The notes beneath the pieces were generated by a model. The model did no database searches. It had not been told where the DNA came from and saw nothing but the letters and a program-made list of their open reading frames with translations. This document shows, one piece after another, positions 22,251-30,921 of a stretch of DNA of 64,000 nucleotides; positions within the stretch are counted from its first letter, which is position 1, and each line of letters starts with the position of its first letter. Both the position numbers and the translations under genes were made by a program. This DNA is from Squalus acanthias. Its lineage: Eukaryota. The stretch covers positions 868,001 through 932,000 of the forward strand of contig JASTWF010000114.1 in NCBI GenBank assembly GCA_030390025.1, in the 5' to 3' direction.

Positions 22251-25200
22251 AAGAGAGTTTTCTAAATCAGTATGTTGAGGAAACAACTACAGAACAGATT
22301 TTTTTAGTATCTAGTATTGTGCAACGAGAAAGGGTTAATGAATAAGCAAGTAGTAAAGGGGCCTTTAGGCATGAGTGACCATAATATGATAGAATTTTGT
22401 ATTGAGTTTGAATGTGACTTAGCTGAATCGGAAACTAGGGTCTTAAATCTAAAGAAAGCAAAATATGTAGGTATGAGGTGTGAGTTTGCTAAGGTAGATT
22501 GGGAAACAACATTAAAAGTTCTGACAGTGGACGAGCAATGGCTAGCATTTAAAGAAGATTTAAATAATTTACAACAAATATACATTCCTTTAAGGCACAC
22601 AAACCCCACAGGAAAAGTGATTAAACCGTGTCAAACAAGAGATGTTAAAGATAATATTAGGTCAAAGGAATGGTATATAATGCTGACAAAAAGAATAGCA
22701 AGCCTGAGGATTGGGAGGATTTTAGAATTCAGCAAAGGAGGATCAAGATATTGATAATAAAGTGAAGATAGAATATGAGAGTAAACTGGCGCGAGACATA
22801 AAAGCAGACTGTAAAAGCTTCTAAAGGTATGTAACAAGGGTGGGTCCCTTACAGGAAGAGAGAAGATAAATTATAATAGAGAATAAGGAAATGGAAGAGA
22901 AATTAAACACATACTTTGCATGTGTCTTCACGGAAGAAGACACAAAAAACTTCCCGGAAATAGTGGACAACCAAGGGTCTAGCGAAAATGAGGAACTGAA
23001 AGTTATTAGTATTAGTAGAAAAGTAGTATTGGAGAAATTAATGGGACCTGAAGCCAGTAAAACTCCAGGAACTGATGCCCTACATCCTAGGGGTTTGAAA
23101 TAGATGGCTGTAGAGTTATGGGTGCATTGGTTGTCATTTTCCAAAATTCCATAGATTGTCGAACGGTTCCCACGGATTGGAAGGTAGCAAATGCAACCAC
23201 ATTATTTAATAAAAGAGGGAGAGAGAAAATGGGGATCTACAGACCAGTTAGCCTGACATCAGTAGTAGGGAAAATGCTAGCTTCTCTTATTAAGGACGTG
23301 GTAACAGGGCATTTAGAAAATCATAATAGGATTGGGAAGAGTCAACATGGATTTATGAAAGCGAAATCGGGTTTGACAAATCTGTTGGAGTTCTTATAGG
23401 TTTAACAGCAGAATGGAAAAGAGGGAACAGTGGATGTGGTAAATTTGGATTTTCAGAAAGCAATATATAAGGTGGCACACAAGATGTTATGAAACACAAT
23501 TAGGCCTCATGCGATTGGGGGTAATATACTAGCATGAATTGAGGATTGGATAACAGACAGAAAACAGATTGTAGAAAAACATGGGCTATTTTCTAGTTGG
23601 CAGGCTGTAACAAGTGGGGTACCACAACGATCAGTGCTTGGGACTCAGCTCTTCACCATATATATCAATGATTTGCATGAGGGGACCAAATGTAATATAT
23701 CCAAGTTTGCTGATCATACAAAGCTGGGTGGGAATGTAAGTTGTGAGGAGGATGCAAGGAGGCTGCAAGGGGATATAGATAGGTTAAGTGAGTTCGCAAG
23801 AACATGGCAAATGGTATATTATGCGGAGAAATGAGAAGATATCTACTTTGGTAGGAAAAATAAAAAAGCAGTGTATTTTTTAAATAGTGAGAGATTGGGA
23901 AATGTTGGTGTTCAGAGGGACCTGGTTGTCCTTGTACACGAATCACAGGAAGTAAACATGCTGGTACAGCAAGGAATTAGGAAAGCAAATGATATGTTGG
24001 CCTTTATTACAAGAAGATTTGAGTATAAGAGTAAAGACGTCTTACTGCAATTATATAGGGCCCTGGTGAGACGACACCTGGAGTATTGTGTACAGTTTTG
24101 ATCTCCTTACCTAAGGAAGGATATACTTGCCATCGAGGGAGTGCAACGAAGGTTCACTAGATTGGTTCCTTGGATGGGGGAATTGTCCGATGACGATGAT
24201 TGAGTAGACTAGGCTTATATTTTCTAAAGTTTAGAAAAATGAGAGGAGATCTCATTGAAATATACAAAATTCTTACAGGGCTTGGTACAGTACAGCTGCA
24301 ACACTGACATTTATCCGACAATGTGGAAAATTGCCCAGGTATGTCCTGTCGACAAAATGCAGGACAAATCCATCCCGATCATTTACACTACATCAGTCTA
24401 CTCTCAATCATCCGCAAAGTGATGACAGGTGTAATCGACAGTGCTATCAAGCGGCACTTACTCACCAATAACCTGCACACTGATGCCCAGTTTGGGTTCC
24501 GTCAAGAAAGCTCGGTTCCCGACATTGGTCCAAACATGAACAAAGGAGCAGAATTACAGAGGTGAGATGAGTGTGACTGCCCTTGACATCAAGGCAGCAT
24601 TTGACTGATTGTGGCATCAAGGAGCCCTAGTGAAACTGAAGTCATTGGGAATCGGGGGGTGGGTGGGGGACGTTCCAATGTCTGGAGTCATACCAAGCAA
24701 AAAAGAAGATGGTTGTGGTGTTTGAAGGTCAATCATCACAACCTCAGGACATCGCTGCAGGATATCCTCAGGGCAGTGTCCTAGGTCCAATCATCTTCAG
24801 CTGCTTCATCAATAACCTTCCCTCCAACATAAGGTCAGAAATGGGGATGTTCGCTGATGACTGCACAGTGTTCAGTGCCATTCACAAATCCTCAGAAATG
24901 AAGCAGTCCATGCCCGCACGGAACAAGACCTGGACGAATTTCAGGCTTGGGCTGATAAGTGGCAGGTAGCATTCGCGCCACAGAAGTGCCATGTAATGAC
25001 TATCTCCAACATGCCCCTTGACATTCAACGGCATTACCATCGCCGAATCCCCCACCATCAACTTCCTGGGCGTCACCATTGACCAGAAACTTAACTGGAC
25101 CAGCCAAAAAAATACTGTGGCAACAAGAGCAGGTCATAGGGTCGGTATTCTGCTGCGAGTGTAAAACCTCCTGACTCCGCAAAGACTTTCCACCATCTAC

Positions 25201-26082
25201 AAGTCACAAGTAAGGAGTGTGCTGGAATAATCTCCACTTGCCTGGATGAGTGTAGCTCCAAAAACACTCAAGCAGCTCGACACCATCCAGTACAAAGCAG
25301 CCCGCTTGATTGGCACCCCATCCACCACCTTAAACATTCACTCCCTCCACCAACGGCGTGCCGTGGCTGCAGTGTATACCATCTACGAGATGCACTGCAG
25401 CAATTCGCCAAGGCTTATTCGGCATCACCTCCGAAACCCGCGAACTCTTCCACCTAGAAGGATAAGGGCAAGACGCGCATGGGAACACCACCACCTTCAA
25501 GTTCCCCTTCAAGTCACTCGCCATCCTGACTTGGAAATATATCCCCGATCCTTCATCGTCGCTTGGTCAAAAACCTGTAACTCCTTGCCTAACAACACTG
25601 CAGGAGAACCTTCACCACATGGACTGCAGCAGTTCAAGGAGGCCTCTCACCACCACCTTCTCAAGGACAATTAGTGATGAGCTATAAATGATGGCCTTGC
25701 CAACGACGCCCAGATCCCATAAACGAATTTTTAAATATGATGCAGTGAGGATGTTTCCCCTGGCTGGGAACTCTAGAACCAGTGGTCACAATCTCTCAAT
25801 AAGCGGTTGGCCATTTAGGACTGAGATGAGGAGAAATTTCTTCACTCAGAGGGTGCTTAATCTTTGGAATTCTCTGCCCCAGATGGCTATGGAGGTTCAG
25901 TGGTTGAGTATATTCAAGACACAGCTCGATAAATTTCTGAAAAATAAGGGAATCAATGGATAGGGGGTTAGTTCACGAAAGTGGAGATAAGGCAGAAGAT
26001 CAGCCATGATCTTATTGAATGCGGAGCAGGCTCAAAGAGCCAAATTGCCTAGTCCAGCTCGTTTTTTTAATGTTCTTATGTC
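22251..26082 (+). mobile_element. Degenerate CR1 LINE, ORF2 to 3' UTR, split by another LINE
   Basis: Endonuclease and RT fragments at 22317-24101; resumes at about 25737 (RMFPL...RRNFFTQR) and ends in a TTCTTATG tail. Confidence 0.85.
24285..25735 (+). mobile_element. Distinct non-LTR retrotransposon fragment (CR1/L2 group, different family) nested in CR1
   Basis: [21 protein letters not shown] and MFADD; tail CACCACCTTCTCAAGG...GGCCTTGCCA.CGACGCCC shared with 38970-39110, 61595-61875 and 62880-63260. Confidence 0.82.
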
Positions 26083-26452: not shown

Positions 26453-26647
26453 TGTGGTAACACAATACAGCTTCCTGTGACTCGAACTTTATTGCATCAC
26501 TTCCTGTGATTAGTCCAGGATAAATACTGGACAGATCAGTTGGATCCTGGAGAAGCATAGAGTAAGACCTCTTTTGTATATAGCACCATTTTTAGCTGAT
26601 TAAAGCTTACTTTAAGTTCACCACGTGTAAGGCTCATACATACGACA
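26453..26647 (+). repeat. 5' LTR
   Basis: TGTGGTAA...TACGACA; 8 mismatches to the 3' LTR by manual comparison (about 4%). Confidence 0.95.
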
Positions 26648-26725
26648 ATTTAATCAACTTTGGAAAACTTCGCACTCAAACTTTTTGGACGAACTCGGAA
26701 CTAAGGATCCAGGGAATCACCCATC

Positions 26726-27574
26726 ATGGAAAACATCCTTAAACCATCGCGTCTTGACTTGGACCCAAACACCCCAGCAGCCGGTAAGGTGTGGAAACAC
26801 TGGTATCGCACGTATGACAATTTTCTGGAATATTGTAAGCCTGATGATGACTCAAAGTTGCGGATACTCATCAACTGTGTCACCCCGAATGTATTTCAGT
26901 ATGTGGAGGAATGGGACAGTTACGAGGAGGCAATTCGGAAGCTTAAGAGACTATATACTAAGACACCGAATGAGGTCTATGCCAGACATCTACTTGCTAC
27001 AGCCCAACAAGGGCCGGAGGAATCCATTGATAAATTCCTCCAAGAGCTTCGCAGACTTAGTATGGACTGTAACTTTCGGGCGGCCTCAGCTAAGCTATAC
27101 CGTGAAGAAATGATCCGTGATGCTTTCATCTGCGGGCTTGCCTCCCCATTTATACGCCAGCGTCTACTGGAAATTAAGACACTTGAGCTTCAGAGAGCTT
27201 ATGACATGGCTTGCTCTCTAGATCTGGCAAAAAGAAATGCAGACCTTTATACAGTGCCCAGACCTCGGTCTACTGCCTTAACTACAGTCAGGCAATTTAA
27301 GAGGCCACAGGTGAACTCTATTAGGGAGGTCTTTATCCCTGACGATCAATCTGATGACTTCACTGATGAAGAGGATGATGACCCCACTGTGGCAACCTCT
27401 TGGCAATCTAAGAAATGCTTCTTTTGTGGTGATGAGTAACACCCTCGGAAATTCTGCCCTGCTCGCAATGCGTTTTGCAGTCATTGCAACAAAAAGGGTC
27501 ATTTTGCAAAGGTTTGCCTATCAAGAGCCTCTACGAGGGCTTATCAAGCTATGTCCTACCGAACTGCCCGGTAA
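26726..27574 (+). pseudogene. gag: gag with two CCHC zinc knuckles and a premature stop at 27437-27439
   Basis: IRDAFICGL..IRQRLLE; reading through the TAA gives CFFCGDE*HPRKFC and CSHCNKKGHFAKVC. Confidence 0.88.
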
Positions 27575-30500
27575 GGGCCTATCAAGATGTTCCGGCTAAA
27601 ATCTATCGTGCTTCCTCTCGAAGAAACACACCTAGAGTTTCAGCCACTCTTTGTGCAAAGACACCAATTACAGCTGCTTGTCCTCAGAACCTATTCCATG
27701 CAGCTACAAAAGCATCAATTAATGGACATACTTTAGATGCCTTAATTGACTCAGGTAGCACTGATAGTTTCATTAGGGAACTGATTGTTGCAGAGTTAAA
27801 GCTACATGTTTTCCCATCGTACCAGGCAGTTGCGATGGCTCAGTCATCACTTAATACCAGAATTTCTGGCTTTTGTAGGGTTGAAATAATACTTAATGGT
27901 CACAGGTATCCCTCCACCCGGCTTTTGGTGCTCAAGGACTTATGTAGTGATCTTATCTTAGGACTGGATTTTCAAAAGCAGCATAAGAAGCTCACCATTG
28001 AGTTCGGCGGATCTAAACCTGAACTCACTATTTCTAATATACTACCTCGATTACCGTTCTGTGCATTGTCAGCAGCTTCACTGGATGAACCCTCACTGTT
28101 TTCCAGTATCCCTCCTCGATGCAAACCGATTATAACAAAGTCACGACGTTTCAGTCAGGAAGACCAGTCTTTTATTGTGGCTGAGATTTCTCGGCTTTTA
28201 GCAGAGGATATCATCGAGCCTTGTTCGTCGCCATGGCGCACCCAGGTCGTTATTGTTAAGAACCCTCTAAAACCTCACAAGAAACGGCTGTGCATTGACT
28301 ACTCACAGACCATCAATCAATATACGGACTTGGACGCATACCCATTGCCACGCATCGATGATATGGTTAATAAATTGGCTGAGTACACGGTGTTCTCAAC
28401 ATATGATCTAAAAAGTACCTATCATCAGGTACCCTTGAAGGTCTCAGACAAGCTGTATACGGCCTTTGAAGCCAATGGACGGCTGTATCAATTTCGTCGC
28501 CTCCCCTTTGGGGTCACTAATGGAGTGGCTGTCTTCCAGCGAGCAATGGATGGTCTGGTCAAACAGGAAGCCTTGAAGGATACGTTTCCTTATCTGGACA
28601 ATATTACTGTCGCAGGTCGCAATCAGCGGGAACATGACGCCAATCTCCAAAGATTTTGGGATGCACTCCAGCACCGTAATTTGACATTAAATGCGGCTAA
28701 ATCCATTGAGTCACAACCAACCATCAACATCCTTGCCTATTGTGTGGGCAATGGCATCATTAAACCTGACCCTGAAAGGCTTCGCCCACTCCAAGAACTC
28801 CCGCCACCTAAGAATCCGGCCTCCTTGCGCCGGGCCCTCGGCCTGTTTGCATACTATGCTAAATGGATTCCTAACTTCTCGGACCGAATCCAACCTCTAC
28901 TGAAGGCCAGCACATTCCCACTAGACGCAGCGGCTGTTGCAGCCTTTAACCTCCTGAAAAAACAGTTGGAGAAAGCGACTCTTCAGTCCATCGATGAGAG
29001 TCTTCCTTTTGTCGTTGAGTGTGATGCCTCGGAGGTGGCGATCTCGGCCACTCTGAATCAGGAAGGTCGTCCGTTGGCATTATTGTCCAGGACTTTTCAA
29101 GGGGCTGAGCTACATTATCCTCCAGTCGAGAAAGAAGCTACAGCCATCATAGAGGCAGTACGGAAGTGGAGTCACCTCCTAGCTCGCCAGCACTTTACCT
29201 TAATCACGGACCAGCGATCGGTCGCCTTCATGCTCGATAATCGAAAACGGACCAAAATTTAAAATAATAAAATCCAGCTTTGGCGGCTGGAATTGGCCTC
29301 TTTTGGTTACACCATCCACTGTCGACCTGGCAAGGAGAATGTGGCTCCAGATACCCTCACACGAGCATTCTGCTCTGCCATGGCACCCTCTACGCTCATA
29401 GACATCCATGATGGGTTGTGTCATCCGGGCGTTACTCGCATGCTACACTTCGTGCGGTGCCTAAATCTCCCATTCTCTAACGGGGATGTAAAGAAGATGT
29501 GCTCGGACTGCAGAGTCTGTGCGGAATTGAAACCTCGGTTTTTCCGCCCCTCGGGTGGTATACTCATACATGCGACCCAGCCAATGCAACGGCTTAGCAT
29601 CGATTTTAAGGGGCCGTTGCCCTCTTCAACTCGCAACACTTATCTATTGACCATGGACGATGAGTATTCCCGTTTTCCGATTGCCTTTCCCTGCCCCAAT
29701 ATGCTAACGTCCACGGTTATCAGCTGCCTTGAGCAGGTATTTGCTTTATGTGGCATGGCATCCTATGTTCATTCGGATCGGGGCCCTTCTTTTATGTCAG
29801 GAGAACTCAAGGCCTATCTCTCGGAACGGGGTATTGCTGCCAGCAAAACGACGCCTTATCATCCGGTCGGGAATGGGCAAGTCGAGCGTTTTAATGCTAT
29901 CATCTGGAATGCGGTACGTCTGGCTTTGAGATCTCGGGGCCAACCCAACCAGCAATGGGAGGCAGTACTTCCAGATGCATTACACTCCACACGGTCCCTC
30001 CTTTCGACCGCCACAAATACGACGCCTCATGAACGGTTCTTCCGATTTCAGCGTCGCTCATCCTATGGGATATCTCTCCCGTCGTGGCTGACTGCACCGG
30101 GACCAGTGCTACTCCGAAGATATGTCCGGGCGTCTAAGAATGACCCCCTGGTAGATGAGGTTGAGCTCACTGACGTCAACCCTAGCTACGCCTATATTCG
30201 GTATCCTGACGGTCGGGAATCTACCGTGTCATTGCCGGATCTGGCTCCCTGCCCGCCGAAACAAAGAGGGACACCAGGGGATGATATTGTACCAGGCACA
30301 TCTCTGGGCTCGCCAGGTGCCTCTCATCACGATCTGAATCTGACGCCGGCTGGTACCTCACTCCAGCGTGCCGACCTGGGGCAGACTGTCTATGAGCCCG
30401 TCGGGGCTCGCACGCGCAGCCACGATCCACCCTGTACCGTACGCTCGGAAACGGATCTGCCACAGCCCTGCCTGACACCCGTTCGGGCACCACTACACAA

Positions 30501-30663
30501 TCTGGATCGTCCTGACCCCTCACAGAGCGGGCTGGATCACTCGGACTCTGGTCCACGGCCCGCGGCGGGTAAACGGGCTAGGGGCCCTCTACCGCCACGA
30601 GAACCCAAACGGGTGCGGCTCTCCCTCGTCCAGCGGCTACGAAATGGAGGGAGAATGTGGTAA
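27475..30663 (+). pseudogene. pol: pol (protease, RT, RNase H, integrase) with an in-frame stop at 29260-29262
   Basis: LIDSGS protease, YLDN RT, VECDAS RNase H, HHCC and SIDF/HSDRG/GQVE integrase motifs; ORFs 27475-29262 and 29293-30663 share a frame. Confidence 0.93.
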
Positions 30664-30726
30664 CACAATACAGCTTCCTGTGACTCGAACTTCATCCCGG
30701 CCTCCTAATCTTTTGGGGGGGGAGAA

Positions 30727-30921
30727 TGTGGTAACACAATACAGCTTCCTGTGACTCGAACTTTATTGCATCACTTCCTGTGATTAGTCCAGGATAAATA
30801 CTGGACTGATCAGTTGGATCCTGGAGAGGCATAGAGTAAGACCTCTTTTGTATGTAGCACCTTTTTTAGTTGATTAAAGCTTACTTTAAGTTCACCACGC
30901 GTAAGGCTCATTCTTACGACA
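30727..30921 (+). repeat. 3' LTR
   Basis: Direct repeat of 26453-26647, preceded by a polypurine tract. Confidence 0.95.

Follow-up and report, generated by a model that had tools for sequence, protein, structure and literature searches.

The window analysed in this work is a stretch of 64,000 nucleotides from Squalus acanthias, which contains a Ty3/Gypsy retrotransposon at positions 26453-30921. The assignment is based on LTRs with TG...CA ends, a polypurine tract (PPT), a target-site duplication and the domain order PR-RT-RH-IN. The features of the element are collected in Table 1. A sequence-only reading of the same DNA had ascribed to the element a gag with two knuckles, the YLDN motif and no chromodomain, and all three were found as claimed. 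The window copy is decayed, with stop codons at 27437-27439 and 29260-29262, a gag/pol frame change and a target-site duplication that matches at three of five positions. Its two LTRs differ at 8 positions over 195 bp, and four of these differences lie within the arm or the U5 hairpin.

Table 1. Coordinates of the Ty3/Gypsy element in the window (1-based, whole stretch).
Feature	Position	Strand	Remark
5' LTR, TG...CA	26453..26647	+	195 bp; corrected ends
TATA-like box GATAAATA	26519..26526	+	putative; within a short inverted repeat, arm 75 nt downstream
Candidate self-primer arm	26594..26604	+	pairs with the PBS at 10 of 11 positions in the window copy; 3' end is ATTAAA (26599-26604)
Predicted hairpin immediately 3' of the arm	26605..26617	+	from folding
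Predicted U5 hairpin, adjoining the LTR end	26626..26644	+	contains 3 of the 8 LTR differences of the window copy
Spacer of one base (A) between LTR CA and PBS	26648..26648	+	same spacing in 19/21 families
Non-tRNA PBS TTTAATCAACT	26649..26659	+	complementary to the LTR arm
gag-PR-RT-RNase H-IN coding region	26726..30663	+	broken; two CCHC knuckles, YLDN, no chromodomain
Additional purine tract and first 40 nt of the LTR	30646..30695	+	duplicated throughout the family, 71 nt before the 3' LTR
Polypurine tract	30715..30726	+	from sequence
3' LTR	30727..30921	+	195 bp; contains an arm without mismatch, with the poly(A) hexamer, at 30868-30878

In the surroundings of the element, a 51-bp tandem satellite with at least 37 copies extends from 31114 to about 33000, beginning about 190 bp past the 3' LTR. 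Upstream, short frames at about 24900-26000 give the impression of decayed LINE fragments. A twin of the insertion, 99.6% identical and with the same flanks, was identified on another contig (L124, G000:C3349) and probably represents the other haplotype.

The 5' LTR is not followed by TGG, since position 26648 is an A and the sequence then continues with TTTAATCAACT. As the sequence-only reading had noticed, this 11-mer forms an exact inverted pair with 30868-30878 in the 3' LTR. With the segment 26594-26604 of the 5' LTR, which is located 44 nt upstream of the 11-mer, it forms 10 of 11 pairs, the mismatch being at 26596; the hexamer ATTAAA at 26599-26604 is indeed part of the pairing segment. 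The chance that an 11-mer at a fixed site matches the reverse complement of any 11-mer of the LTR is about 6e-5, or about 3e-4 over six offsets. Complementarity to the LTR of at least 10 bp, a start 0-5 nt after the LTR and the absence of TGG, which together make up the criterion given in PMC6317226, were all identified here.

In the host genome of 3.7 Gb, the junction of LTR end and PBS occurs exactly 1,988 times. Among the best 30 copies of the family, the PBS is identical in all, and the 5' arm matches it at 11 of 11 positions in 28; the other two are the window copy and its twin. The family copies have 5-bp target duplications, and their LTR pairs are mostly 97-100% identical. Two further families, whose Pol sequences are 76-77% identical and whose LTRs differ, have this layout as well, with a duplex of 12-13 bp, and the genome contains at least three young families of the clade. 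Of 9 family copies that end in a proper 3' LTR, 8 contain the duplication of a purine tract and 40 nt of the LTR start (30646-30695). It is skipped in the contigs of 3 of the 4 sequencing runs compared; it may be a fixed scar of plus-strand priming. These four runs were taken from 15, all present as contigs and one registered as RNA; their contigs showed no transcript starts, ends or poly(A) tails and extended into the flanking DNA, so that they carry no information on expression.

Among the protein-search matches listed, 240 relatives were counted, with named hosts among corals, hydra, crustaceans, sea cucumber, tunicate and ray (Xenia, Hydra, Actinostola, Macrobrachium, Palaemon, Oratosquilla, Caligus, Apostichopus, Clavelina and Narcine). 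Two CCHC knuckles are present in the window copy and in 98 of 120 long relatives, and YLDN in 79 of the 120. A metagenome scan gave 80 loci, and a search of a viral contig set gave no relatives. The metagenome loci were scanned blindly for the longest perfect inverted repeat within 240 nt around the gag start, with at least 11 bp counted as positive. Scorable were 36 of the 80 loci, after exclusion of 41 without a gag N-terminus and 3 with insufficient upstream DNA. A perfect duplex of 11-18 bp upstream of gag was found in 27 of these 36, and a duplex of at least 11 bp in none of 166 control windows inside elements. After dereplication, the duplex was present in 21 of 29 families; three of the eight families lacking a perfect 11-bp duplex have the layout with 1-2 mismatches. 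The duplex persists in families that are 43-77% identical to the window element in Pol. In the family of L048, L049 and L097, complementarity interrupted by one mismatch continues over about 18 nt, this outer position being paired in one copy, which hints at a longer primer.

The sequence of the PBS changes together with the LTR, and the compensatory changes looked for on the basis of the sequence-only reading were found in the relatives. The 21 families with the duplex contain 16 distinct PBS 11-mers, and a PBS matches its own LTR at 12.8 of 13 positions, compared to 8.5 for non-cognate combinations. In an alignment of 14 elements, 98.9% of the cells pair, and both partners vary in 9 of the 13 pairs; none of 500 shuffles equalled the observed pairing, and controls with a slid register reached 18-52%. 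These pair counts, for the 21 families as for the 14 aligned elements, come from elements selected for the presence of the duplex; the register was not a selection criterion. The duplex begins exactly one base past the CA of the LTR in 19 of the 21 families, with loops of 21-70 nt. In LTR elements, the placement of the primer defines the end of the DNA, and the fixed one-base register fits this. A fixed start one base after CA combined with a variable loop is the geometry of a primer, and not that of tRNA priming. A joint change was seen at L041, which is 98% identical to two aligned sister copies: compared with four sister copies, one base is altered in each of its LTR arms, and so is the corresponding base of its PBS.

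Folding gave the LTR-PBS duplex as the unconstrained minimum-energy fold in all five stretches, which came from four families, with z values between -3.1 and -5.4 in the four short stretches and of -0.5 in the 143-nt stretch. With z values of +0.26 to +1.62, the 5' end of the window copy folds no better than shuffled sequences; a family copy whose arm is perfect folds better than these (z -3.1). In 14 of 21 families, a helix begins at the base directly after the arm (pairing probability >0.5), and this post-arm hairpin has a mean pairing probability of 0.61, versus 0.29 in shuffled loops. For Tf1, the available part of PMC10085805 describes a pretzel, in which a duplex is formed with bases downstream of the PBS. 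A duplex of this type was not supported in the 21 families (mean z +0.13, one family significant); what is predicted for the window clade is, in contrast, the local hairpin after the arm.

For phylogenetic placement, an IQ-TREE analysis of RT-RNase H was performed on 44 of 127 rows, of which four clade rows were represented by proteins only, with the PBS unseen. The self-pairing elements form a clade with support of 100/100 on a stem of 0.88, and the sampled chromoviruses form another (100/100), apart from it. A joint clade of the two was rejected (AU p 0.014), the chromovirus rows being those of green algae and plants, with Tf1, sushi and named Mag/SURL elements absent from the tree. On the tests run against these plant and algal chromoviruses, the clade is not a member of the Tf1/sushi group. 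This placement, together with the pairing kept in the relatives, supports the earlier suggestion of a separate self-priming lineage. A chromodomain or an SH3 domain of the Tf2 type was found in none of the 23 clade polyproteins. A chromodomain search of the host genome gave 16 matches, in short frames. The SH3 matches retrieved resembled endogenous retroviruses, two to four of which were used solely as outgroup of the tree. Loci resembling endogenous retroviruses (L131-L137) have long frames after pol, and L131 and L132 carry a gag-like frame on the opposite strand.

Two CCHC knuckles in gag are a feature of the Mag lineage. The sister group of the clade consists of unnamed rows of the TGG/K02A2.6-like type at a support of 88/72 and without a named Mag reference, so that the label 'Mag-like', used for the gag in the sequence-only reading, would fit the window clade weakly. 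The tRNA-primed K02A2.6-like Gypsy families of the host genome, also labelled 'Mag-like', share with the window clade this weak sister placement, short LTRs and a single gag-pol frame. They served as tRNA-type control, for which 20 loci of other Gypsy families in the genome were collected. In contrast to the window clade, all 12 that have an LTR pair carry TGG within a few bases after the LTR, and in RT-RNase H they are only 26-32% identical.

The PBS of the element is complementary to its own LTR, and by analogy to Tf1 these results make it highly probable that minus-strand DNA synthesis is primed by a piece of the element's own RNA. In the proposed mechanism, the predicted duplex of 11-18 bp would close the junction, and the hairpin predicted by folding would stack on the 3' end of the arm. 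By analogy with Tf1, the RNase H of the element might then cleave directly after the final AAA of the arm, and the released 3'-OH would be extended through U5 and the remainder of R. Strand transfer could rely on the remaining 15-25 nt or so of R before the poly(A) site, and the PBS would be rewritten when the primer is copied into the plus strand. It is this rewriting that is proposed as the reason why arm and PBS change together. Within the window family, compensation was seen in none of 12 copies with a PBS variant, none of 7 copies with a variant 5' arm and none of 11 arm-variant matches, and in one family element both LTRs carry an altered arm next to an unaltered PBS. Since variant copies are as rare as predicted by neutral decay after insertion, the rewriting of the PBS from the primer is neither supported nor excluded by this comparison.

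The source of the primer depends on where the transcript starts. In all three families of the genome, TATA-like boxes are located 75-92 nt upstream of the arm; this would place the start 45-60 nt before the arm, and the primer is then maybe not the very 5' end of the RNA. The TATA-like box lies within a short inverted repeat in all three families (26512-26534 in the window, and in the LTRs of L111 and L113), and in two of them it is preceded by a GC box. In 17 of 21 families, no TATA-like box was found inside the LTR. In one invertebrate family, the arm is preceded by no more than 45 nt of LTR and by a TATA-like run at -28 to -24; both fit transcription that starts at the arm, as in Tf1. A putative initiator is the A/T-G that follows a T-rich run and occupies the eleventh and tenth pairs counted from the inner end. 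A transcript start at the arm is given a slightly better than even chance, and a primer that derives from a source other than such a transcript is rather unlikely. In the latter case, the piece would come from a longer 5' fragment, from the 3' repeat or from a second RNA. The most far-reaching form of this idea, an animal-wide Gypsy clade in which self-priming is independent of Tf1/sushi and uses an internal primer released by a cut exactly behind the poly(A) hexamer, is considered doubtful. If it were true, one duplex would set both the start of reverse transcription and the choice of the LTR that is polyadenylated.

In HIV-1, a hairpin hides the 5' poly(A) signal. The sequence-only reading had brought up a comparable role for the duplex, and it is conceivable that the duplex serves chiefly for this in the 5' LTR and that something else primes. 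The arm ends with AATAAA or ATTAAA in 13 of the 21 families, the duplex is possible at the 5' LTR only, and the hexamer would be about 55-70 nt from the cap if the families of the genome start at their TATA-like boxes. However, the arm has no canonical hexamer in the other 8 families, which nevertheless retain the duplex, and the loop of L037 and of L040 contains a hexamer instead; this argues that occlusion is not the reason for the duplex. Occlusion also needs no exact start of the partner, yet the start is one base past CA in 19 of 21 families, and no alternative primer site is visible. As the chief role of the duplex, occlusion is thus very improbable; as a side benefit added to priming, it is a possibility that we hold tentatively.

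Priming by a host tRNA half, a tRNA fragment or another small RNA, with the match to the LTR being secondary, is scarcely credible. Half-tRNA priming is known in Copia lineages, according to the part of PMC6317226 available, and the tRNA screen covered a limited set of 47 genes with five clear isotypes. Against these genes, the best match of the PBS was 6 pairs, or 7 with G-U, and an intact tRNA 3' end cannot prime because the site has no TGG. A stronger argument than the screen is that the 16 PBS forms in 21 families each follow their own LTR. The last explanation, a functionless by-product such as a chance match of AT-rich sequence or a scar left by template switching, has a negligible probability: the 11-mer is AT-rich and the 5' end of the window copy folds like shuffled sequence, but such a match has a chance of only about 3e-4 in one element, the duplex is kept with compensation and fixed register down to 43% Pol identity, and the covariation of arm and PBS refutes this reading.

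Self-priming from the element's own RNA, as favoured here, has its closest parallel in the Tf1/sushi group. Tf1/Tf2, Tj1, Tosmo and the Tf1/sushi elements in general are, like the window element, members of Ty3/Gypsy which have no tRNA PBS and in which an LTR segment is complementary to the bases after the LTR. The 5-bp target duplication of the window family is a further likeness to this group. The self-priming mechanism of Tf1 is described in the accessible sections of PMC4600332, PMC10085805 and PMC5341516. Different from Tf1/sushi, the window clade has no chromodomain, but two CCHC knuckles and mostly YxDN. Its arm often ends with a poly(A) hexamer, and the capped 5' end, which is the primer in Tf1, is putative as primer here. 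Outside Tf1/sushi, self-priming was inferred from LTR-PBS complementarity for TAR, Houba and Osr-1, as far as the available text of PMC6317226 goes; these are plant Copia elements, whereas the window element has the Gypsy order PR-RT-RH-IN.

Among the non-chromoviral Gypsy elements of invertebrates, mostly marine, MolGy1/2, LGF2/4 and Saci2/lennie are likewise to be considered. In the portions available of the papers on them (PMC6238403, PMC8556966, PMC8220671, PMC12471100), self-priming is not mentioned; the comparison with these elements covers their published descriptions. For Saci2, the accessible part of PMC12471100 gives a target duplication of 4 bp, a length of 4.7-5.2 kb and tRNA assignments, in contrast to 5 bp and about 3.9-4.5 kb here.

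In the sections available of PMC6317226, PMC10085805, PMC4600332 and PMC5341516, self-priming is tied to chromoviruses of the Tf1/sushi/Tcn1 type and is predicted for the Copia elements TAR, Houba and Osr-1; further literature on self-priming, likewise available in part, comprises PMC11042837, PMC5006619, PMC6934838, PMC3601003 and PMC3587641. This literature, as far as accessible, treats self-priming in Gypsy elements as a mark of the Tf1/sushi chromoviruses, and its demonstration was made in elements of fission yeast. A description of self-priming in a clade like the present one was not found in the parts of the literature available, and Repbase reports, supplements or older papers may hold one. 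At the level of sequence, the signature of priming without a tRNA in this non-chromoviral Gypsy clade of animals is real and covaries strongly. A second, large self-priming clade would imply that such priming evolved, or was retained, on more than one occasion.

Annotation that requires a tRNA PBS would miss elements of the clade or assign wrong tRNAs to them. The elements may also be expected to escape silencing by 3' tRNA fragments. The 16 natural primer sequences, the fixed register and the conserved hairpin together represent what RNase H would need to recognise for the making of the primer.

A tandem arrangement was additionally observed at L233 and L234 (G000:C1:560500-580499), where three elements lie in a row with single LTRs between them in common, the array as a whole being bounded by one 5-bp target duplication. 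This array resembles the tandem arrays of Tf1/Tf2 that are described in the accessible part of PMC11042837.
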